In this document: piece by piece, positions 882 to 54,909 of the stretch
Numbering within the stretch: the stretch's first letter is position 1
Layout of the letters: each line of letters opens with the position of its first letter
Virus record (IMG/VR): IMGVR_UViG_3300025121_000014
Span: 32,001 to 96,000 of that record
Length of the DNA: 64,000 nt
DNA from: a virus
Taxonomy: Duplodnaviria; Caudoviricetes
Direction: 5' to 3' (one strand)
Program-made: the position numbers and the translations under genes
The notes under the pieces: model-generated
What the model was told of the DNA's origin: nothing
Databases searched by the model: none
Seen by the model: the letters and a program-made list of their open reading frames with translations, nothing else

Positions 882-1688
882 ATGATAATAAAGTTTAATG
901 AATATATATTGGAAGCAAAATTAACAGAAGGTTATGATGATTATATACGTCAATTTAATAGTATATATTCTTTAATTAAAGACATTGGTGGTACAGTTAA
1001 TCCAATTGAGTTGAAAGCTAAAAAATCTTTTTTAAAAAAAGATATAGATGCTTTTATAGAAAGAATAACAGAAGATAATATATCATCGACTGATATAGAT
1101 AAAATTCAACAATATATTAAAGATAAAAAGAAATTACTACATAAAAAATTATTTAATTTATTTGAAAATTTAGATAATATTAAAAGAGATATTAAAAGAA
1201 AAAAATTAAGAAAAACACAAGAAAGATTTGTCGAAGATAATCCAATAATTAATGGATTAAATAAAATAGATACATTAGAAAGTTTTTATAATAACATAGA
1301 GACTTTATTAAAAGATAATAGTAAAACTGATGTTCTATTTTTCTTATATGGTTTATTAGCATACTTCAATAATAATTCATTAAGTCGTGTAGATTTATTT
1401 AGTTTTATTTCTATGCATGATGATGAAATGACAGGAAATCTTATTAGAAATTTGAATTGGGAAATGGCAACATGGGATGATAAAAAATATGACCAATGGC
1501 ATTATATTGGTGGAGTTATGAATCAATTATTTAGGGGAACTGATAAATTTACAGATACAGATTTAAAAGAAGAAAATCCATATACTGATAGAGAAAATGC
1601 TATTTATGAAATATCAGATGAATTCTATTCATATATAAAATCAGTCTTAGTAAAATTTGTGGAAACTGGACAATTTGATTTAATTTAA
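882..1688 (+). CDS. Hypothetical protein with capsid-targeting-like N-terminus (MIIKFNEYILE)
   Basis: 268-aa ORF with TTAATATATA upstream at 849-858. It ends 7 bp before the CRISPR array. Confidence 0.75.
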   Translation: MIIKFNEYILEAKLTEGYDDYIRQFNSIYSLIKDIGGTVNPIELKAKKSFLKKDIDAFIERITEDNISSTDIDKIQQYIKDKKKLLHKKLFNLFENLDNIKRDIKRKKLRKTQERFVEDNPIINGLNKIDTLESFYNNIETLLKDNSKTDVLFFLYGLLAYFNNNSLSRVDLFSFISMHDDEMTGNLIRNLNWEMATWDDKKYDQWHYIGGVMNQLFRGTDKFTDTDLKEENPYTDRENAIYEISDEFYSYIKSVLVKFVETGQFDLI

Positions 1689-1695
1689 ATTATTA

Positions 1696-2325
1696 GTTGT
1701 ATCTACCTATCATTCCAAGGTTATATCCAACATTGGTAGTATAAATAGGGATGATTGTTATGTTGTATCTACCTATCATTCCAAGGTTATATCCAACGAA
1801 ACAAGTTTTTTCTGAATTACAGACACTGTTGTATCTACCTATCATTCCAAGGTTATATCCAACTAATTATAAAAATGAAAAGATAATGTAAGGGTTGTAT
1901 CTACCTATCATTCCAAGGTTATATCCAACACTGAATATTTATGGTATTCCGTCTGAAGCGTTGTATCTACCTATCATTCCAAGGTTATATCCAACTCGAT
2001 GGTAAATGCCTTAAACGGTATTAGAGTTGTATCTACCTATCATTCCAAGGTTATATCCAACCATAATCTAATAATGGAATATTACTCCCTCGTTGTATCT
2101 ACCTATCATTCCAAGGTTATATCCAACATATTGGGAAGGTGAACTATTAGCAGGTTCGTTGTATCTACCTATCATTCCAAGGTTATATCCAACGTATTAT
2201 GTGATACTTTTTGTTCTTTATCAGTTGTATCTACCTATCATTCCAAGGTTATATCCAACAAATGATATTTTTAATATACCTATGAACTTGTTGTATCTAC
2301 CTATCATTCCAAGGTTATATCCAAC
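1696..2325 (-). CRISPR. CRISPR array: 10 identical 36-bp repeats and 9 spacers of exactly 30 bp
   Basis: Repeat GTTGTATCTACCTATCATTCCAAGGTTATATCCAAC (+ strand) starts at 1696, 1762, 1828, 1894, 1960, 2026, 2092, 2158, 2224 and 2290 (66-bp period). Minus orientation is inferred from the adjacent effector and tracr-like region, not proven. Confidence 0.98.
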
Positions 2326-2476
2326 CTATGACCATTTAAATACTTAGTTTAAAGATAGTTAGTGAGTGCTTACTGAAATTAAAATATATAATAAAAATAC
2401 AAATGAAACATAAGTCTCTTTATTTTTTAATTTCTACCTCACCGTAAGGGCATACAATTGCCCCATCTAAATATTA
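2326..2476 (-). ncRNA. Candidate tracrRNA/leader between cas12f and the array
   Basis: Minus strand has the hairpin GGGCA-AUUGUA-UGCCC (2448-2463) and a 10/12 anti-repeat CTAACTATCTTT (2351-2362). Position and length are as expected for Cas12f1 tracrRNAs. Confidence 0.5.
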
Positions 2477-3739
2477 TCAAAGAACTTTTTCTTTATTTTT
2501 TAATTTATAATATTGTGTATTTTCATATTTATCAACATATAATTTTGATTTGGCAATATTATATGCTGCATTATAATCAGAATCTATATTTTCATTGTGT
2601 ATTTTACACTTATCATTTTGACATATAAATGTATCCCCATTTCTTTCCCCTATTTCCCCACATATAGAACATATTTGACTAGTATGATAAGGATCGACAA
2701 ATTTCAAGTTTATTCCATAAGAATCTACTTTATATTTTAACTTGTCTATAAAATTAGAAATTGGCCAATATCTAGAAAAAAATGAATTCTTATCAATATT
2801 TCTATTTAATAATTCCATATTAATCTGTTCTACTTTATACTTTATACAAAAATCAATAACCTGTTTACTTAATTTATGTAAAGCAGTATTAGTAAAATTA
2901 ATTTCTTTTTTTCTGATAGTGTCTAAATATTTTAATTTTCTATTTCTACCGTGTCCACCTTTTGCCATAACCATAGATTTCTGGTATTCTCTTCTTTTCT
3001 TATTAATATCCATCTTTACACGGATTAAATCATCAGAATGAATTGATTTTTGTACATGTATATTATCATTTAATCTTATTGATACAAATCGTCTAACACC
3101 TAAATCGATGCCACATACTCTACCTTTTACTTTTTCGTAATCTTCAGATTCTGTTTCATATGTAAATATTATATAATAATGTTTGTCTCTTTTATTGTAT
3201 GTTACGTTAAAAACTCTATTAATATTTAGTGATTTATCATTTTTATCCATTAATCTTTCTAATAGTTTTTTGTTACCACTTTTATCTTTACCAAATAATA
3301 GTTTAAAATCTAATCCATTTTTTATTCTTAATATGATATCATCATTTACATTATGAAAATTTGGATTAATCCCACCACTATTAAATTGGTATATAATAGG
3401 TGCTCCATATTTATATAATCTAGGTGTTCGTTTACCTTTAAATAATCCGTTTTTTATGTCATTAGAAAAATCTTTCTTAACCCTATGACATATATTAGAT
3501 AATATAGCTGTTGGGAATGTTGGATGCAAATCTCTTACAGAGTGATATACTTTTGTTGTTTTTGCAGATTTTACTGGAATAATACTTTCTGACAATTTTT
3601 GTTTTATAAATACCCATTCGTGTGAATATGCATCATTATATATTTTATTTGTTTGATACATTAAATTATTTATATAATCAAATGTATTTTTATTTAATGG
3701 CACTATTCTTATTTTTACTGCGGATATGTATTTATTCAT
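2477..3739 (-). CDS. cas12f: Miniature type V CRISPR effector, Cas12f1-like (TnpB-derived RuvC nuclease), 420 aa
   Basis: RuvC-I GIDLG, RuvC-II INMELL, Zn finger TSQICSICG...CQNDKC and RuvC-III DSDYNAA. The segment AKGGHGRNRKLKYLDTIRKKEINF resembles AsCas12f1 ARGGHGRDKRIKPIEQLRDKIANF as recalled. Directly adjacent to the array. Confidence 0.85.
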   Translation of the reverse strand: MNKYISAVKIRIVPLNKNTFDYINNLMYQTNKIYNDAYSHEWVFIKQKLSESIIPVKSAKTTKVYHSVRDLHPTFPTAILSNICHRVKKDFSNDIKNGLFKGKRTPRLYKYGAPIIYQFNSGGINPNFHNVNDDIILRIKNGLDFKLLFGKDKSGNKKLLERLMDKNDKSLNINRVFNVTYNKRDKHYYIIFTYETESEDYEKVKGRVCGIDLGVRRFVSIRLNDNIHVQKSIHSDDLIRVKMDINKKRREYQKSMVMAKGGHGRNRKLKYLDTIRKKEINFTNTALHKLSKQVIDFCIKYKVEQINMELLNRNIDKNSFFSRYWPISNFIDKLKYKVDSYGINLKFVDPYHTSQICSICGEIGERNGDTFICQNDKCKIHNENIDSDYNAAYNIAKSKLYVDKYENTQYYKLKNKEKVL

Positions 3740-3758
3740 ATTATTGTTTCTTTAATTA

Positions 3759-3790
3759 TAAAGATAAACTAAAAAATAATAAAAACCAAA
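3759..3790 (-). promoter_or_regulatory. Bacteroidota sigmaA-like promoter upstream of cas12f
   Basis: Minus strand TTTG-N20-TATCTTTA, one mismatch to the -33 TTTG / -7 TAnnTTTG consensus, about 20 nt upstream of the ATG. Confidence 0.5.
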
Positions 3791-3837
3791 TATTTTATAA
3801 AATATTTTATATATAGATGTAAAAATAAAAACATTAA

Positions 3838-6800
3838 ATGTTAGACTTTAAATTATTCGAAAATGTTGCTCAGGCTAAGTCTTTTTTAAGACAAAATAAT
3901 ATTCCTGAAACCGATTCATTATACCAATTAGTAAGAAAATCATTTAAAGGTAAAGAAGGTTATGTCGGTTGGATTACTAAATTAATATATCGTATGTTAG
4001 CTTTTGAATCTAACGGAAAATATTTGGCACTTGATAAAAATTCTTTGATTGATAGTACAGTTAATAGTAGTAATATTATTAATAATACTTTAAATCGCGC
4101 TAAAAGACAGTTTGATATATTACTTGATTATTTATCTGAAAAAGAAGTTATAGATAAATTAGAAAAACCTGTAATTGAATATGAAACATTCGAACAATTT
4201 GTTGATGCCTTTATAATTGCTGAAGATAAACTTAAAGCTAAAAGAATTTATGATGAATTTCCTGCTGAGCAAAAGAAATTAATTAATATAAACATTGATT
4301 ATAAATTATTAAAACAATTACATGATAAAAAAAATAAAAAAATATTTATTAAAAAAATATCATCGTATCATGATAGAAAAAATTTAATATCTAGAATAAC
4401 TGCATTTATTAATGAAGTAATCGATGATAATTTTAATAATAAAATAAAATATTTAAAAAATAATAAATTAGAAATTGTTCACCAGAGTGAAAAAGATAAT
4501 ATTATTATTGCTAAAATATTTAACTACCAACAATGTTCAATAGTAGGTGCTGAAACATCTTGGTGTATAGCAAGAGATTCTAATACTTATAGTAATTATA
4601 TAAAGAACGATTTAGATAGACAATATATTATTTATTTAACTGATAAACCACCAACAGATAATGAAAGTATTATTGGTGTTACTTTTAAATTAAATTCTTA
4701 TTATACTGCACATTATAAAGATGATGCATATTTAACTGAATCAAAACTTAATGAATTGTTTGAACAAAGAAAAGTTGATAAAAAAATATTTAAAATTAAA
4801 AAAAGTGAAATAAATGAACATAATATTAAAAATGTTAATCCATATGGTTTATTTAAATTAGGATTTACAAAAGATGAAATTATAAATAAAAAAGGTAAAG
4901 AATATTTAACTGGAATGCAAATTTTATTATTAAAAGAAATGGGGTTTACAAAAGATGAAATTAAAGAATATTCTCATTTTAGAGATCCATTAGAAGATAT
5001 AAAAAAAGTTGGATTTACAGAAGAAGAAATAGAAGAGTTGGTACCTAATTTAAAACAAAAAAATATTGAAGAATTTATAGAAGCTAAATTATCAAAAGAA
5101 TTTATAATGAAATATATAAATTTCGATACTTTATATGTTCATAGTTTATTACATATGTTTACAAAAGAAGAAATTTTAAATAATAAACAAGTATATGTTG
5201 AATCAGAATTAGATAGTTTTAATCAAGAACAAATAAAAAAATATGATTTAAATAATAAAGTAAGATTAGATGGTTATACAATTAGTGTAGATGAATTAAA
5301 AAAATATATTAAAACTGGTGAAATTTATAAAATTATAAATAGATTAGAACCAAAATCAATATATTTATTTAAATTAATTAATGCTGGTTTAAATTTAAAC
5401 GATTTACAACAAATAAAGAATCTTTATGAAAAATTAATTGATATTGATCGAGATTTTTATAAAAAACATTGTTATAAACCAAAAGAAGAAACGAAAACGA
5501 ACGAATATAGAATATATAGTTCGAATACATTTTATTTAGATCATACTATAAAAAAATTAAAAATATATAATATTACACCAGATGATATATCATTAGAAAA
5601 ATTAGAATATGTGTTAAATGGAATATCACATTTGGCGGTTCCAAGAGTTGTTAACTTTTTAATAGAACAAGAATATTCTTATACTGAACAAGAAATTAAA
5701 AATTTTTTACTTAAAATTATACATATTAATGTTGATAAAAAAGAACTATTTAAAAGTGGCATAGAAGCTGGTATAAATTTTTATCCAGAATTAATGATAT
5801 TTTATCTTGAAAATAACGATGTAATTGATCCACGTGAATTTGATACCGCTAAAAATCTTCTAAGCGAAAAATACCCAGATAAATGGGAAATTATTGAAGA
5901 TAAACAAAAAAAAGCTATATTTATTAAACATACATTACGTCAAGCAGGATATTTGGCTATAGGTTCACAATATGATGATTTTGGTGATTGGGATACTGAA
6001 CGCAAAGATTATGCATTAAACTTAAATTGGAAAAATGAAATGAAAGGTGAAAATGAATATTTAGCATATGTAGCAACAATAATAATTTTAGCATTAAATG
6101 ATGATTGGGAAAGTTTATATAAATTACCACAATGGGATTGGGGAGATAATACAACTAATGTTGGTGATAGTTTAGATAATTATAAAGTATATTTATCTTA
6201 TTTAGTTAGAACTATATTAGGTGCAAATGTTACAAAATCATATTCAAAATTTAGAGAAACAGACGAATTAACAAAAAATCAAATAAGTAAAATATATACT
6301 TGGATAATGAATTATGTATGGCCAACTATTGAAAATAAAGAACAACAAGAACCAGAATTACAATTAGCTTATTATCTTCTTGATAAAAAAAGATGGAATG
6401 ATTATTTACAAAGAACTAAAAAGAAAAAAATGAATTATTTTCGTAAAGATAGTTATTGGATATCATACTCTGATAAAAAAATCGGAACAAAAGAAATAAA
6501 AATGACATATAGATTTTATAACATTGCACAAGTTGTAGAATATTTATGTAATGATAGAAAATATATAAATTCACCATATTATAAAAGTATTCCTAAAACA
6601 AATATGGAATTAGATAAATTATTATTTGAATTCACAGATGGAATAACAATGGGTAAAAAAGAATTAAAAAAAACAATATCAACATTATATCGAATAAATA
6701 TTTGGAATGATAATAAAGATAGAACAAAAATAATAAATGATATATTTAATAAATATATTCCTATAATAAATGAAAGTATAATGACCAATTATGATAACTT

Positions 6801-6846
6801 TATATATAATTTAAAATTTAATAATCCTAAGAATGTTAGACTTTAA
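3838..6846 (+). CDS. Large hypothetical protein (1002 aa) with an SWCIA (PcfJ-like) motif and CTS-like N-terminus
   Basis: Long ORF containing CSIVGAETSWCIARD...QYIIYLTD. N-terminus is MLDFKLFE. Confidence 0.8.
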   Translation: MLDFKLFENVAQAKSFLRQNNIPETDSLYQLVRKSFKGKEGYVGWITKLIYRMLAFESNGKYLALDKNSLIDSTVNSSNIINNTLNRAKRQFDILLDYLSEKEVIDKLEKPVIEYETFEQFVDAFIIAEDKLKAKRIYDEFPAEQKKLININIDYKLLKQLHDKKNKKIFIKKISSYHDRKNLISRITAFINEVIDDNFNNKIKYLKNNKLEIVHQSEKDNIIIAKIFNYQQCSIVGAETSWCIARDSNTYSNYIKNDLDRQYIIYLTDKPPTDNESIIGVTFKLNSYYTAHYKDDAYLTESKLNELFEQRKVDKKIFKIKKSEINEHNIKNVNPYGLFKLGFTKDEIINKKGKEYLTGMQILLLKEMGFTKDEIKEYSHFRDPLEDIKKVGFTEEEIEELVPNLKQKNIEEFIEAKLSKEFIMKYINFDTLYVHSLLHMFTKEEILNNKQVYVESELDSFNQEQIKKYDLNNKVRLDGYTISVDELKKYIKTGEIYKIINRLEPKSIYLFKLINAGLNLNDLQQIKNLYEKLIDIDRDFYKKHCYKPKEETKTNEYRIYSSNTFYLDHTIKKLKIYNITPDDISLEKLEYVLNGISHLAVPRVVNFLIEQEYSYTEQEIKNFLLKIIHINVDKKELFKSGIEAGINFYPELMIFYLENNDVIDPREFDTAKNLLSEKYPDKWEIIEDKQKKAIFIKHTLRQAGYLAIGSQYDDFGDWDTERKDYALNLNWKNEMKGENEYLAYVATIIILALNDDWESLYKLPQWDWGDNTTNVGDSLDNYKVYLSYLVRTILGANVTKSYSKFRETDELTKNQISKIYTWIMNYVWPTIENKEQQEPELQLAYYLLDKKRWNDYLQRTKKKKMNYFRKDSYWISYSDKKIGTKEIKMTYRFYNIAQVVEYLCNDRKYINSPYYKSIPKTNMELDKLLFEFTDGITMGKKELKKTISTLYRINIWNDNKDRTKIINDIFNKYIPIINESIMTNYDNFIYNLKFNNPKNVRL

Positions 6847-19570: not shown

Positions 19571-21079
19571 ATGTTACTTAAAAAATATAATGATTTTATG
19601 ATTGACAAATTACTTTTAGAATCATTAAATGAATTTAAATTTATTTTATCAGGTCGTTTAAAAAATATATTAAAAAATATAAATAGTGAAATATCTGATG
19701 CATTACTAGCATTACATAATGATGATGATTATAAAAGTAAAAAAACGTTTATAGATATTAATGAAAGAGATGATGAAACTTTAACATTAATTCAAGCAAA
19801 TAAAGCTACTGAAATATTAAAAATAGATAATCAAGAATATTTAGATAATAATCCTTATTCAATACAGCGATATAAAAAATTAAAATCTGATCATGATGTA
19901 TATAATAAACATAGAATATCCGTAAGAGTAGGTCGTTTAATTAATTATTTATTTCCTAATAGATTTCCTAGTGCTTCACCAACAGATATTACCAAAAAAT
20001 CAAAAGATATTGAAAATTTTGTTAGAATGTATAAATCTATTGTTTTTCAAAACGAAAGATTTAAATTATTAGATTTGGTAAATGGTGATAATATATCATA
20101 CTGGTATGATTGTAATAATTATGATAGTAGTGATTCTGGATCATTAGGTAGTTCTTGTATGGCAAGTGTATATGAAGAATATTTTGAAATATATGTTAAT
20201 AATCCAAATACTATACAATTATTAATATTATATTCTGATAATTCTAAATCATATATATCTGGAAGAGCCTTAGTTTGGACATTATATGAACCAGAAAATG
20301 GTAGAAAATATATGGATAGAATTTATACAAATGATAGTTCAGATGAACAAGTATTTATTGATTATGCTAAAGAAAATGGTTGGTTATTTAGATCATCACA
20401 AGGTTGGAATAATACTGATATTGTTGATTCATTAACAAATCAAACTATTAATACGAATTTAATGGTTCGTACAACTAAAGACGATTATAGTTATTATCCT
20501 TGGATGGATACTATGTGTTATTATAGTCCGGAACTTGGAATTTTATCTAATAAATCAAATAATTTACGACTATATCTGCAATCACAAGATGGTTCAAGTT
20601 CAACAAATAGTGATTATTATGAAAATGAAGATGATACTTATATATTTAGTAAATATGAAGGGGAAGATATACTTCGAAGAACCGCAGTATATTGTTATTA
20701 TGGAGATGATTGGGTTCATACATCAGTAGCCAAAAGAGTATTTAATGCGGGATTAGTAACAAATCCAGATGGGACTAATAGAATTTATTCTATTCCTGTA
20801 CATCCTGATGTTGTTAGATCATATATTCCTGATATTAATTATGATAAACATTTTCCAAAGAAAAAATGTATTTGGTCAATTTATTTAAATGCTTGGATTT
20901 TTAAAGATAGTAAAGTAAAAATATATCTAGATGTAAATAGAGAAAAATTTGGATATGACCACAAAAAACGTAAAGATATAAATTTTGGAAAAGTAGGTAG
21001 AGTTCATTATGTAATTGAATTACTTGAAAAAAATGAAAATGATCAATGGAAATTAAAAAAAGAAAATGAAAAAGTTTAA
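19571..21079 (+). CDS. Phage hypothetical protein with SCM/RALVW/MDRIY/YPWMDT motifs and CTS-like N-terminus
   Basis: 502 aa. Motif set recalled from large-phage hypothetical proteins; function unknown. Confidence 0.75.
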   Translation: MLLKKYNDFMIDKLLLESLNEFKFILSGRLKNILKNINSEISDALLALHNDDDYKSKKTFIDINERDDETLTLIQANKATEILKIDNQEYLDNNPYSIQRYKKLKSDHDVYNKHRISVRVGRLINYLFPNRFPSASPTDITKKSKDIENFVRMYKSIVFQNERFKLLDLVNGDNISYWYDCNNYDSSDSGSLGSSCMASVYEEYFEIYVNNPNTIQLLILYSDNSKSYISGRALVWTLYEPENGRKYMDRIYTNDSSDEQVFIDYAKENGWLFRSSQGWNNTDIVDSLTNQTINTNLMVRTTKDDYSYYPWMDTMCYYSPELGILSNKSNNLRLYLQSQDGSSSTNSDYYENEDDTYIFSKYEGEDILRRTAVYCYYGDDWVHTSVAKRVFNAGLVTNPDGTNRIYSIPVHPDVVRSYIPDINYDKHFPKKKCIWSIYLNAWIFKDSKVKIYLDVNREKFGYDHKKRKDINFGKVGRVHYVIELLEKNENDQWKLKKENEKV

Positions 21080-31206: not shown

Positions 31207-32880
31207 ATGCCAAAAATTCAAGGAAAACAAATAGCAGATAAAACAATAGATCAAGCAAATATATTATTGACTACACCAACGATAACTGATACGTTATCAG
31301 CAGTAACAGTAGAATATGTAACTACTGCTATATCAGCAGTTACTAGTACAAGTGGTATACTTGGTATACCTACTGACGGTTCATATTCTGATGGTATATT
31401 TACTGATTGGACTAGTGGTACAACAGTTGCTAATATGGCTGATGCTGTTAACGAAATGCTTTTATTATTGGCACCTTCACCTCCTTTAACAAGTTGGGAT
31501 AATGTTTTTAGTAATTTAAATATTGGTGGTACTTTATACGAAAGTATGAAAATAGCTGGTGGAACAACAACAACAACATCTTCTATAACAACAAATACTA
31601 CACCCGATATATCAGTTAGTGTTATTAGTTTAACAGGATCAGCAGCAAGATCAAGAGATGGTGGTATTTTTACTCTAAGTGATACTGTTCATAGTACCAT
31701 AGAAACAGTAACTTTAACAACAAGTTCTGTTACTAAATCTAGTGGATGGATTAGATATACAATAGCTGATCCATATTATGGGATAGCAGGTCAAGCTGGT
31801 TTTTGGACGGGTGTTACCGCATTCAGTTTAACTGATAGTACAAGTGCATTTACACCAAGTGCTACTTTAAGAACACTAACTTTTGCTCATCCTGGTACAG
31901 ATACACCAGAAACAAAAAGTTTTTATGTAGATGAAGTTGCAAGTACAGTAGTAGTAACAACTAATAGTGAAACTATGCCTACTATGTCATCTTATATATC
32001 AGGTATTCCAACTTTATCATATGGACAAAGTATTACAAATGTTGATTTTGATATTGCAGGAGCAGTTAAATGGTTTTATAATCCTACTATATGGAAAATA
32101 AATGGATCATATGTAGTAGATACTGGATGGTCTGTACCAACAGGTGTTCCAGCAGCAAATGTAACATATAATGAAACAGGCGCATCTGTAAATATTGCAA
32201 ATAATGTATTTAATGATAATAGTTTTTCGTATACTTTAAATGGAAGAAATATACAGGGAACATCTGATACAGATGTAGTTACAAAATCTACATATAGAAT
32301 TGATACAAAATCTGTTGAAACTAGTAGAAAATTATCTGGTACAGGTCCATTTCCTACAACTGCTTTATCTAATTATTATTATGGTACTTGGGTATCTTCA
32401 TCAGATTTAACCACAGGAGATTGGGTTAGAGAATTAATGATGAAAGAAGGAAAATATCAATGGCCAGGTAGTATTGATTATTCCGCTTATGGAGGACCTA
32501 ATTATTTATCTGTTACTGGTGGTGACACACATGTAGATTCACTTAATTATAGATGGGCTTGTTTTAGTGTTGGTTCAGTATCAAATGATACTAATTTTAC
32601 ATTTACTATAAATGGTGTAGAAAATTTTGGTTCAACAAATATAATAACTGGTATAAAATTATATGTAAGAGTAGTTGGTGCAACTGGTACAGCCTGGTTA
32701 GATGCTAATGCTGCTTGGGGTGGTGCTACTGGTGATAGTGATGGAGATGCTATGTTGGTGTTTGGTGAATCAACAGTAACAACAAGAAAAGTTACATTTG
32801 GATCAGTTAGAACAGGTACAGTATATGTTAGAATCGGTTTACAATCAGGTAGTACAAAGAAATTTACAAGTATAAGTTAA
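31207..32880 (+). CDS. S/T/G-rich putative virion structural protein
   Basis: 557 aa. MPKIQGKQI N-terminus, beta-rich composition. Confidence 0.7.
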   Translation: MPKIQGKQIADKTIDQANILLTTPTITDTLSAVTVEYVTTAISAVTSTSGILGIPTDGSYSDGIFTDWTSGTTVANMADAVNEMLLLLAPSPPLTSWDNVFSNLNIGGTLYESMKIAGGTTTTTSSITTNTTPDISVSVISLTGSAARSRDGGIFTLSDTVHSTIETVTLTTSSVTKSSGWIRYTIADPYYGIAGQAGFWTGVTAFSLTDSTSAFTPSATLRTLTFAHPGTDTPETKSFYVDEVASTVVVTTNSETMPTMSSYISGIPTLSYGQSITNVDFDIAGAVKWFYNPTIWKINGSYVVDTGWSVPTGVPAANVTYNETGASVNIANNVFNDNSFSYTLNGRNIQGTSDTDVVTKSTYRIDTKSVETSRKLSGTGPFPTTALSNYYYGTWVSSSDLTTGDWVRELMMKEGKYQWPGSIDYSAYGGPNYLSVTGGDTHVDSLNYRWACFSVGSVSNDTNFTFTINGVENFGSTNIITGIKLYVRVVGATGTAWLDANAAWGGATGDSDGDAMLVFGESTVTTRKVTFGSVRTGTVYVRIGLQSGSTKKFTSIS

Positions 32881-52380: not shown

Positions 52381-54909
52381 ATGTCATTTGTAAAGCAAAT
52401 TTATCCACGTATAAGTAATGTTTCTGTCAACAATCAAAGTGTAGAATATTTAGACTTAAGTGGTTTAACCGAACCATCAAATCCATCAATAGGTGGTAGA
52501 ATATATGTAGGTATTGATAGACATTTATATTATTCTAGTGGTACTTCTTTTGTTCAACTTGATTCATCTACTGTTAATTGGTCTGATTCATTAACATCAA
52601 ATCTTATCCCAGATACTGATGATGCATACGATTTAGGTAATGGAACTTATAGATTTAGAGATATTTATTTTAGTGATAATATTAAAATAGGAAATGATAG
52701 ATTTTTAACATACGGTGTAACAAACACAAATATTTTTTTAGGATTAAATTCAGGTAATTTAACAGGAACTGGTGGAAATAATGTTATTTTAGGTAATGTT
52801 GCAGGAGTTGCTTTAACTGATGGTACAAATAATGTATTATTAGGTTATCAAACAGGTGATGCTATTCGAGATGGTATAGGAAATATTTTTATTGGTGGTC
52901 AATCTGGTTCTGCTGTTGTAAGTGGAAATTATAGTGTAGGTATTGGATATCAAACATTACTTCTAAATAAAAGTACATCAATTATTGCTATTGGTGAATC
53001 AGCAGCTAGAGATACTATTGCAAGTGCTTATGGTATATTTATTGGATATCAAGCTGGATTAGGTAATGGTACAACTACAAATGGTCAATTTAATATTTCT
53101 ATTGGTGCTGAATCAGGTAAATTAGCAACATCTGCACATAATAATATTAATTTTGGTTATAAAACTGGTTATTCTAATTTAACAGGTTCATATAATATTA
53201 ATATTGGGCAACATGCAGGTTATAATGAAACTGGTAGTAATAAATTATATATTCATTCACAATCAACTACAACAGCAACAAGTTTAACTAGTTTAGTTTA
53301 TGGTGAATTTGATAATCATTTTTTGAGATTTAATGCTTCTATTGTTATATCTGGAATGACTGCACCTAGTCCACAAACTGGATTATTATATGTAGATACA
53401 GATAAACATTTATATTATTCTTCTGGTGATACATTTTTTCAACTTGATACAGGTGGTGATTTTTTATCTATAAATAGTAATATAATACCGAGTATAAATA
53501 ATACATATAATATAGGATCATCTAATTATGCTTGGAAAGACTTATATTTAACAGGAACTACATACACTAATACTATTATGGAATTTAACACAGATTTTGG
53601 TGTTACAATAGATTATGTATTATTAAAAGATAGTGGAATTACATTAGGTACAGGACCTGCTGTAAATACAATACAAACAACTATATCAGATTCAGATACA
53701 TCTATACCAACATCAGGCGCTGTAATTGATGCTATATCACAATCTACATTAGGATGGATTAATGCTTCTGGAACTCCATTAGTTAATCAAATTGCAATGT
53801 TTATTGATACCAATACGATAGAAGGTCAAAGTGGATTGACATGGAATGGTTCTACATTTATTGTCACTGGAACAACAAATACTGATACATTAGTTGCAAA
53901 TAATTATTTATCTATAACTAATACGGAAGGTTATTTACAATTTGCCGGAAATACCGTTAGAATTGGATATGGTATATCAACTAATACTGGTACAACTAAT
54001 TCTATTTTAATAGGTTATAATACTGGTGTTATTTTAAACGAAGGTGATAATAATATAGCTATTGGTACAAATACATTAAGTCAATGTGATAATTATTCAA
54101 ATAATGTTGTAATTGGTTATGGTGCAGGTACTTATGCTAATGCATCTAATAATACTTTTATTGGTTATCGTTCAGGATTAGGTGTAGATTCGTTAACAAC
54201 TGGTGATAATAATACAGCAGTCGGTTATGATACATTATACACATTAACAACAGGAACACAGAACACAATATTTGGTGGTTATGCTGCTACTATATTAGAA
54301 GACGGTTCATATAATACTATAATAGGTTATCAATCAGGATTTTTTAATACAGGTGGAACATATAATGTAATGTTAGGTTTTCAATCTGGTTATAATAATG
54401 AAGGTAATTTAAATGTATTTATTGGTAATCAAGCAGGATATAATGAAGTTTATAATAATAAATTATATATTTCTAATTCAAATGCTGATTCAACAGGTGC
54501 TTTAATTTATGGAGAATTTGATACACCACTATTAAGAATAAATGCACCATTAATAGTACCTACAATTAGTGGAAATGTTGGATTTAGTGATGTGGTAACA
54601 TTCAGTGGTCAAACTACTTATGTGTTAGATACTTTAAATGATACAGGTATTAATACAAATTGTAATAATGGTAATATTCATACAGTTACTTTAACAGGAA
54701 ATAGTATATTAAATTTACCAACAAATTCATTAGTTGGTTCAGTTCATCAATGGATTATTACGCAAGATGCTGGTGGAACAAATACATTAAATTTAACAGC
54801 ATTTACAATTATCGGAACAACAAAAACAATATCTACTGTATCAAATGCTATAAGTTTATTAATTGCAGTTTATAATGGTAGTAATTGGATAATGACAATA
54901 TCCACATAA
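52381..54909 (+). CDS. Tail-fibre-like protein with two beta-roll repeat blocks
   Basis: Two blocks, each ending GYNE..NKLYI...LxYGEFD. C-terminal domain is paralogous to that of 54930. Confidence 0.8.
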   Translation: MSFVKQIYPRISNVSVNNQSVEYLDLSGLTEPSNPSIGGRIYVGIDRHLYYSSGTSFVQLDSSTVNWSDSLTSNLIPDTDDAYDLGNGTYRFRDIYFSDNIKIGNDRFLTYGVTNTNIFLGLNSGNLTGTGGNNVILGNVAGVALTDGTNNVLLGYQTGDAIRDGIGNIFIGGQSGSAVVSGNYSVGIGYQTLLLNKSTSIIAIGESAARDTIASAYGIFIGYQAGLGNGTTTNGQFNISIGAESGKLATSAHNNINFGYKTGYSNLTGSYNINIGQHAGYNETGSNKLYIHSQSTTTATSLTSLVYGEFDNHFLRFNASIVISGMTAPSPQTGLLYVDTDKHLYYSSGDTFFQLDTGGDFLSINSNIIPSINNTYNIGSSNYAWKDLYLTGTTYTNTIMEFNTDFGVTIDYVLLKDSGITLGTGPAVNTIQTTISDSDTSIPTSGAVIDAISQSTLGWINASGTPLVNQIAMFIDTNTIEGQSGLTWNGSTFIVTGTTNTDTLVANNYLSITNTEGYLQFAGNTVRIGYGISTNTGTTNSILIGYNTGVILNEGDNNIAIGTNTLSQCDNYSNNVVIGYGAGTYANASNNTFIGYRSGLGVDSLTTGDNNTAVGYDTLYTLTTGTQNTIFGGYAATILEDGSYNTIIGYQSGFFNTGGTYNVMLGFQSGYNNEGNLNVFIGNQAGYNEVYNNKLYISNSNADSTGALIYGEFDTPLLRINAPLIVPTISGNVGFSDVVTFSGQTTYVLDTLNDTGINTNCNNGNIHTVTLTGNSILNLPTNSLVGSVHQWIITQDAGGTNTLNLTAFTIIGTTKTISTVSNAISLLIAVYNGSNWIMTIST

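Follow-up and report, generated by a model that had tools for sequence, protein, structure and literature searches.

A cas12f-like gene and a CRISPR array stand close together in a stretch of viral DNA, separated by a gap of 151 nt (positions 2326 to 2476, read on the minus strand). What does this gap encode? The window that we analyzed, the whole stretch of 64,000 nt, covers positions 32,001 to 96,000 of IMG/VR virus record IMGVR_UViG_3300025121_000014. It is strongly AT-rich (21 to 31% GC) and was recovered from groundwater metagenomes; one of its ORFs has a virion-protein match in PHROGs, and its source appears to be a huge groundwater phage. A preliminary description, drawn from the sequence of the window, had proposed the gap as a candidate tracrRNA. 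Our analysis supports this proposal: the gap gives a full match to a covariance model of related scaffolds (R1, described below) and presents its elements in the order of validated Cas12f guides. We estimate a probability of roughly 85% that the gap encodes the tracrRNA of a compact type V-F1-like CRISPR-Cas12f system, in which each repeat is predicted to dock at two sites.

The Cas12f unit occupies ~2.1 kb and comprises a 420-aa nuclease, the putative tracrRNA of ~120 nt, and an array of 10 repeats. The cas12f-like effector gene (P0001, 420 aa; 2477 to 3739, minus strand) was identified from its Pfam, NCBIfam, and PDB sequence matches. In Pfam, P0001 matched Cas12f1-like_TNB (1.3e-15) and OrfB_IS605, and its best NCBIfam score was to the general guided_TnpB family (145 bits). 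The PDB sequence matches were 8hr5 (2e-48), 9nzp (1e-44), and 9nzo/9nzr (6e-44). Entry 9nzp is RhCas12f, of 415 aa, and 9nzo/9nzr are Al3Cas12f (PMC13186708); the 497-aa length and the aligned residues of 8hr5 agree with the CnCas12f1 entry in the supplementary table of the same paper. In an alignment of 30 homologues, the RuvC triad (D212, E309, and D388) and the cysteines C357/C360/C373 were invariant. With the triad and the zinc-finger cysteines conserved, the enzyme therefore looks catalytically intact. P0001 thus combines the RuvC D/E/D residues, a zinc-ribbon TNB domain, and similarity to characterized Cas12f1 proteins, the features by which Cas12f1 effectors are recognized, and by its sequence it is a member of the Cas12f1 clade, resembling CnCas12f1, RhCas12f, and Al3Cas12f. 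The Cas12f unit looks complete and is probably cutting.

On the other side of the gap, the CRISPR array (1696 to 2325, minus strand) consists of 10 identical 36-nt repeats and 9 spacers of 30 nt. The 3' terminus of the repeat reads ...AUACAAC, with UACAA at repeat positions 31 to 35. In repeat 1, the predicted pairing sites are UACAA at 2295 to 2291 and the long-duplex partner at 2313 to 2297, both on the minus strand. We assigned the array to the minus strand because the 3' half of the repeat is homologous to that of Al3Cas12f-type repeats ending in CCAAC and because of the complementarity to the tracr segments. The far end of the array lies just 7 nt from the stop codon of an ORF at 882 to 1688 (plus strand, 268 aa). 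Neither this ORF nor the one on the opposite flank (3838 to 6846, plus strand, 1002 aa) had a Pfam match, and we found no cas1, cas2, or cas4 near the Cas12f unit and no adaptation genes in its immediate neighborhood. The array had no match in the phage collection, and a search of viral_contigs for exact copies of the PAM-proximal 22-mers was negative for spacers 3, 5, and 6. Elsewhere in the 64-kb window there was no near protospacer, the best candidate having 8 mismatches.

The gap sequence is identical in three independent assemblies, namely, the window and two further contigs, L001 and L002. L001, another assembly of the same phage, carries 7 repeats (array at 4415 to 4846) compared with 10 in the window. 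Its array is without the three spacers most distant from cas12f and the tracrRNA (window 1732 to 1893), and its gap and remaining spacers are identical to those of the window. The shorter array could reflect a deletion between repeats, assembly collapse, or turnover at the distal end.

Which elements of a tracrRNA can be recognized in the gap? Read on the minus strand, the gap passes from the cas12f stop codon through 12 nt, a hairpin (P1), a UAC linker, GGUGAG, ~70 AU-rich bases, CACUCAC (2368 to 2362), a 12-mer, and 25 nt to repeat 1. The P1 hairpin (2447 to 2464), which begins 12 nt past the stop codon, is supported by the MFE fold and by helix covariation; its arms, GGGGCA (2464 to 2459) and UGCCCU (2452 to 2447), enclose the 6-nt loop AUUGUA (2458 to 2453). 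Within this loop, UUGUA (2457 to 2453) is the putative pseudoknot strand, or short anti-repeat, and is the Watson-Crick complement of UACAA at repeat positions 31 to 35. This complementarity, on which the preliminary description had been built, is present; the loop is free in the MFE fold, and it covaries with the repeat end in 34 loop/repeat pairs. The predicted pseudoknot has 5 bp, and the A at loop position 1 stands unpaired opposite the terminal C of the repeat. The same A/C mismatch occurs in several relatives, for example where a loop AUUUUA accompanies a repeat end UAAAAC.

The second helix, P2, pairs GGUGAG (2438 to 2443) with 2366 to 2361 in the MFE fold. Its 3' strand, CUCACU (2361 to 2366), lies within a conserved CACUC(A/G) box and is supported by the MFE fold, by R1, and by covariation. 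The P2 core UGAG is invariant in the homologues, and the outer pairs covary. Between the P2 strands, the MFE fold places P3, an AU-rich inner stem-loop (2375 to 2434) with a 10-bp outer stem (2434 to 2425 with 2384 to 2375) and additional pairs; P3 is the variable region, conserved among relatives in neither sequence nor length. The long anti-repeat (2343 to 2362) is made up of the 12-mer, a bulge, and 5 further pairs, and its first two bases overlap the base of P2. The 12-mer CUAACUAUCUUU (2362 to 2351) forms 10/12 pairs with repeat positions 18 to 29, so that its earlier description as an anti-repeat to the middle of the repeat holds. Past a 3-nt AAA bulge, CUAAG (2347 to 2343) and CUUGG at repeat positions 13 to 17 form 5 pairs, one of them G-U, as read by eye. 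The anti-repeat ends ~17 nt ahead of repeat 1. A built-in single guide, with a partial repeat and spacer joined to the anti-repeat, is absent from the gap.

The MFE fold of 2343 to 2468 on the minus strand contained P1 with its loop unpaired, P2, and P3 (−27.2 kcal/mol; z = −2.96). The preliminary description had suggested co-folding of the region with the repeat: unconstrained cofolds of tracr and repeat, as well as the fold in cis, recovered P1, P2, and P3, but the long anti-repeat duplex was not chosen. Its caution about short matches in AT-rich DNA was fair. Among 60-nt windows of the 64 kb, the repeat:gap duplex energy ranks only near the 5th percentile and by itself is unremarkable. Since the short matches by themselves are not above chance, their weight comes from their context and from the comparison with related loci. 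Stronger duplex energies were seen at 20951 to 21010, 53021 to 53100, and 53931 to 54000, and we rejected these stretches as anti-repeats: they are partial look-alikes of the repeat inside large ORFs, resembling it at 20 to 30 matched positions with gaps, and look like chance similarity in coding DNA rather than solitary repeats. A search of Rfam over 1500 to 4200 returned no family match, just two chance-level sub-threshold matches.

Is the structure shared by related loci? We assembled 244 of them from protein searches and three collection scans; a scan of viral_contigs with a single protein as the query gave no match, whereas profile-based scans did find loci. A simple array finder detected arrays in 108 of the 244. 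Many of the related repeats share the 3' half of the window's repeat but differ in their ending (CCAAC, UACAAC, UGCAAC, UGAAAC, GUAAAU, CAAAAU, and others), and the scaffold recurs in the gene-array gaps of related loci. The covariance model R1 was built from 22 aligned scaffolds, this phage excluded, with only the helices P1 and P2 specified. Searched against both strands of the 64-kb window, R1, whose seed loci were chosen by a motif search shaped partly on this window, gave a single match, at 2343 to 2464 on the minus strand (42.1 bits, E 1.4e-7), which spans model positions 1 to 104 of 104 and which we take as the tracrRNA core. Across the 244 cas12f-related loci, R1 gave 214 matches adjoining genes or arrays, all on the cas12f strand (214/214).

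In the largest alignment (A7; 88 distinct rows), P1 and P2 were paired in 96.7% of cells versus 73.5% in shuffles, figures to be read in light of the fact that A7 and the other pair-count alignments were fitted to R1, which favors the structure. The covariation score of A7 was 0.58, compared to 0.155 in shuffles (0/500), and slid controls gave 0.08 or less. The slid controls and the many double changes argue that the P1 and P2 helices are real.

The number of scaffolds per locus varies. Many phage loci on IMG/VR contigs of ~12 to 190 kb (L168 to L185, L214, L216, and L229 to L236) have two or three scaffold copies per cas12f-like gene, with four in L216. Scaffold copies directly abut a short array in L178, L184, and L193 (distance, 0 to 1 nt). 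In the multicopy loci, the loops vary between copies (AUUUUG, AUUUUA) in step with the array that each precedes.

Do the two pairing sites follow the local repeat? Covariation across homologous loci had been named as a check on the tracrRNA proposal. For the pseudoknot, we took 34 distinct loop/repeat pairs, restricted to 6-nt loops and to repeats of 28 nt or more, the repeats being read on the cas12f strand. Each pair was scored by its longest antiparallel Watson-Crick run, with the loop set against the last 9 nt of the local repeat. This run averaged 4.71, compared to 2.88 ± 0.16 after re-pairing of loops and repeats, and none of 5000 re-pairings reached the observed value; with G-U pairs allowed, the means were 5.0 and 3.6, respectively. 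The window loop scores 5 (UUGUA/UACAA). Among the relatives, the loop and repeat end change together, as in GUUGGA/UCCAAC, GUUGUA/UACAAC, GUUGCA/UGCAAC, AUUUAC/GUAAAU, AUUUUG/CAAAAU, and ACUUCA/UGAAGU. For the anti-repeat, we calculated the duplex energy between the 34 nt around the scaffold 3' end and the local repeat. These regions paired with their own repeat at a mean of −14.2 kcal/mol, compared to −8.55 ± 0.48 kcal/mol when re-paired (0/5000), and for the anti-repeat region of the window its own repeat ranked first of 40. The loci with poor ranks carry an extra stem ahead of the anti-repeat, as in the RhCas12f type. Thus, loop and anti-repeat both track the local repeat. From sequence alone, the covariation of loop and repeat end in 34 distinct loci independently confirms that the pseudoknot is under constraint in Cas12f guide RNAs.

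The two proteins closest to P0001 (39% identity) are encoded by L003 and L165, on IMG/VR viral contigs of about 676 to 678 kb and 422 kb, respectively. The gaps of these loci (L003, 5264 to 5479; L165, 3761 to 3977) are ~65 nt longer than that of the window and contain additional hairpins as well as the CACUCACUAAA box in a second copy. The first ~113 nt past the stop codon are identical in the two loci; the repeats differ, and the anti-repeat segments differ with them. In both, by our own reading, a UUGGGU complementary to the repeat end, a possible pseudoknot strand, lies just 3' of the P1 5' arm, P1 carrying a large insertion, but the MFE fold prefers local hairpins instead.

How does the predicted RNA compare with known guides? 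Long bulged repeat:anti-repeat stems together with pseudoknot stems of 5 to 7 bp have been described for Cas12f1, and scrambling either of them abolishes AsCas12f1 activity (PMC11246509), in agreement with the earlier statement that two-site pairing with a pseudoknot is known for these enzymes. For Cas12 tracrRNAs as a whole, pseudoknot formation with the repeat 3' end has been described as general (bioRxiv 10.1101/2025.01.20.633832). The tracrRNA:crRNA pairs of Un1Cas12f1 and AsCas12f1 share with the window the two-site pairing and the pseudoknot with the repeat 3' end, but their tracrRNAs are longer, with five stems in AsCas12f, and the protein similarity is lower (E ~1e-19 to 1e-24). Active guide RNAs have been given for Al3Cas12f, RhCas12f, OsCas12f, and two further orthologues (PMC13186708). 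In our own reading of that paper, the guides of Al3Cas12f and RhCas12f run in the order pseudoknot hairpin, short linker, UGAG-type strand, inner stems, CACUC(A/G) box, and anti-repeat; the hairpin loop complements the last 5 to 6 nt of the repeat, and the box pairs with the UGAG-type strand. The P1 loop of the window occupies the place of the pseudoknot strand in these guides. The OsCas12f guide RNA has a CACUC-type core and an element order in common with the window.

The Al3Cas12f guide (Alistipes sp., 9NZO/9NZR) resembles the window in its hairpin with a 6-nt loop, its UGAG:CUCA helix, its inner stems, and a CACUCA box followed directly by the anti-repeat, with no stem 4; the 3' half of its repeat is homologous to that of the window. 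The 12-mer of the window corresponds in position to the start of the long anti-repeat in Al3Cas12f-like scaffolds. The loop-to-P2 segment of the Al3Cas12f guide recurs in three of the R1 seed loci (L101, L106, and L107). The pseudoknot of this guide, GUUGGA/UCCAAC, has 6 bp compared with 5 bp in the window, and its linker has 4 nt compared with 3 nt. Unlike the Al3Cas12f guide, the window lacks a 5' stem 1, has a single long AU-rich stem as its inner region, and carries a bulged and mismatched long anti-repeat. The protein is also shorter (420 aa versus about 506 aa), the aligned part starting ~70 residues later in Al3Cas12f. RhCas12f (Ruminiclostridium herbifermentans, 9NZP), at 415 aa, is similar in size to P0001. 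In its guide, as in the window, the pseudoknot hairpin is the 5'-most element, and the loop contains AUUUA where the repeat ends in UAAAU. The RhCas12f guide has a stem 4 between its CACUCGG box and the anti-repeat, and a stem 2 with a PAM-like sequence that is read by the second monomer; neither is evident in the window. Stem 2 is required in RhCas12f but dispensable in OsCas12f. On these comparisons, the predicted tracrRNA is of a well-known kind, its design is that of a textbook Cas12f1, and it opens no new biological question. Its distinctive traits are its compactness, with no stem 1 and no stem 4, and its weak pairing, with a bulged long duplex and a 5-bp pseudoknot.

On the basis of these results, we propose the following course of events. 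Like cas12f and the array, the RNA would be read from the minus strand, with its core extending from ~2464 to ~2343. Repeat positions 13 to 28 would dock on the anti-repeat at 2362 to 2343 to form the long duplex. Repeat positions 31 to 35, just before the spacer, would dock on the P1 loop to form the pseudoknot, so that the guide would be placed beside the scaffold. A Cas12f dimer would then bind the scaffold RNA and cut PAM-flanked DNA complementary to the spacer. We infer the transcription of the Cas12f unit, its RNA ends, processing, dimer binding, and cleavage.

Where might the transcript begin and end? A terminator scan of 1500 to 4000 found no terminator-like site, none following the anti-repeat, and no U-run behind the P1 hairpin. 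A simple scan found no sigma-70-like promoter inside the gap, promoter-like sites being no commoner than in shuffles; the best promoter-like site near the scaffold on the minus strand is at 2535 to 2507, within cas12f. Because these simple scans revealed no terminator past the anti-repeat and no promoter-like site in the gap, the scaffold may be cotranscribed with cas12f and/or the array. A possible promoter element lies just outside the gap: a conserved GTTCTTTGA motif (2477 to 2485, minus strand) overlaps the last two codons of cas12f together with its stop codon and precedes P1 by 12 nt. In 33 of 167 distinct related loci (among them L094, L100, L198, L085, L026, and L011), the motif precedes the scaffold by 4 to 77 nt, mostly 30 to 45 nt, with a chance expectation of ~0.015 per 120 nt. 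In the window and in L003 it overlaps the end of the cas12f reading frame, stop codon included; in Alistipes loci it is intergenic. Its conservation is therefore at the level of DNA or RNA rather than protein, and it may represent a promoter element or a 5' segment of the tracr.

One potential arrangement is that the tracrRNA has no gene of its own and forms the 5' leader of the pre-crRNA, with scaffold and array on one transcript on which the scaffold could fold back on repeat 1 in cis. The 12 nt from the stop codon to P1, the ~17 nt from the anti-repeat to repeat 1, and the negative scans for terminator-like and promoter-like sites in between would fit this arrangement, which we consider unlikely. 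The first spacer would then have an omegaRNA-like natural single guide, the other copies acting in trans, and a 420-aa phage Cas12f would exhibit a minimal form, intermediate between a transposon guide RNA and a fully split tracrRNA/crRNA pair.

Could the gap instead be the leader of the array and nothing else, with the hairpin serving as a terminator or stabilizer of the cas12f mRNA and the repeat complementarities arising by chance in AT-rich DNA? The position of the hairpin 12 nt past the stop codon would suit such a role, as would the place of the gap directly before repeat 1, where a leader is expected, and the complementary segments are indeed short, with duplex energies that are not exceptional within the window. 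But the hairpin lacks a U-run, no terminator-like site was found from 1500 to 4000, and the entire interval fits a structured family model with an E of 1.4e-7. Moreover, in relatives both loop and anti-repeat vary along with the local repeat, which neither a terminator nor a leader requires, and the close protein relatives are tracrRNA dependent. A gap without any tracrRNA is therefore very improbable.

Is the scaffold still in use? TnpB omegaRNA contains a pseudoknot, and TnpB omegaRNAs and TranC intermediates resemble the window in the related protein fold family (IS605 OrfB/TnpB) and in a scaffold at or just past the gene 3' end, on the same strand, that is followed by the guide-bearing part. 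Unlike in those systems, the guides in the window are supplied by a 10-repeat array, the repeat gives the pseudoknot strand in trans, and guide and scaffold are not fused. Strictly speaking, the element is not an omegaRNA, since its guides come from an array. We saw no transposon ends or tnpA near cas12f, and the window has an array where a TnpB omegaRNA would have a single fused guide at the transposon right end. It does have what marks a type V-F1 tracrRNA: a position adjacent to cas12f and the array on the gene strand, a short anti-repeat, a long anti-repeat, and a conserved scaffold core. A scaffold in decay, left over from a TnpB-type omegaRNA or an earlier tracrRNA, in a locus that is not RNA guided any more or where the crRNA alone suffices, might show an imperfect long anti-repeat, a protein scoring best against the general guided_TnpB family, flanking ORFs without Pfam matches and no cas1, cas2, or cas4 nearby, and spacers without a protospacer in the phage collection, in viral_contigs (spacers 3, 5, and 6), or in the window, all of which we found. 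Decay is, however, hard to reconcile with 10/10 identical repeats, with intact catalytic and zinc-binding residues, with an intact P1, P2, and CACUC box in a full-length R1 match, with a gap that is identical in three independent assemblies, and with an array, not a single transposon-end guide, behind the scaffold. We consider a relic highly unlikely.

The least probable alternative is an array transcribed from the plus strand, in which the repeat end used for pairing would form the 5' end of the crRNA handle, making the proposed pairings irrelevant: the repeat opens with GTTG and closes with CAAC whichever orientation is read, the repeats are identical, so that degeneracy gives no polarity, and the missing cas12f-distal spacers of L001 could hint at a leader on that side, but only 7 nt lie between that end of the array and the stop codon of the ORF at 882 to 1688, the minus-strand 3' half of the repeat is homologous to Al3Cas12f-type repeats whose crRNA polarity is fixed by active guide RNAs, the loop would by our own reading match the plus-strand repeat end at only 3 bases, and all 214 scaffolds lie on the cas12f strand, on which the repeats of the 34 loop/repeat pairs were read.

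Taken as the tracrRNA of a two-site Cas12f system, the gap settles the annotation of this Cas12f locus: nuclease, tracrRNA, and array lie together in one small unit. For the wider family, R1 provides a practical means of finding Cas12f tracrRNAs. A small Cas12f with a naturally short scaffold is also the sort of starting point that is sought for compact genome editors (PMC13186708).
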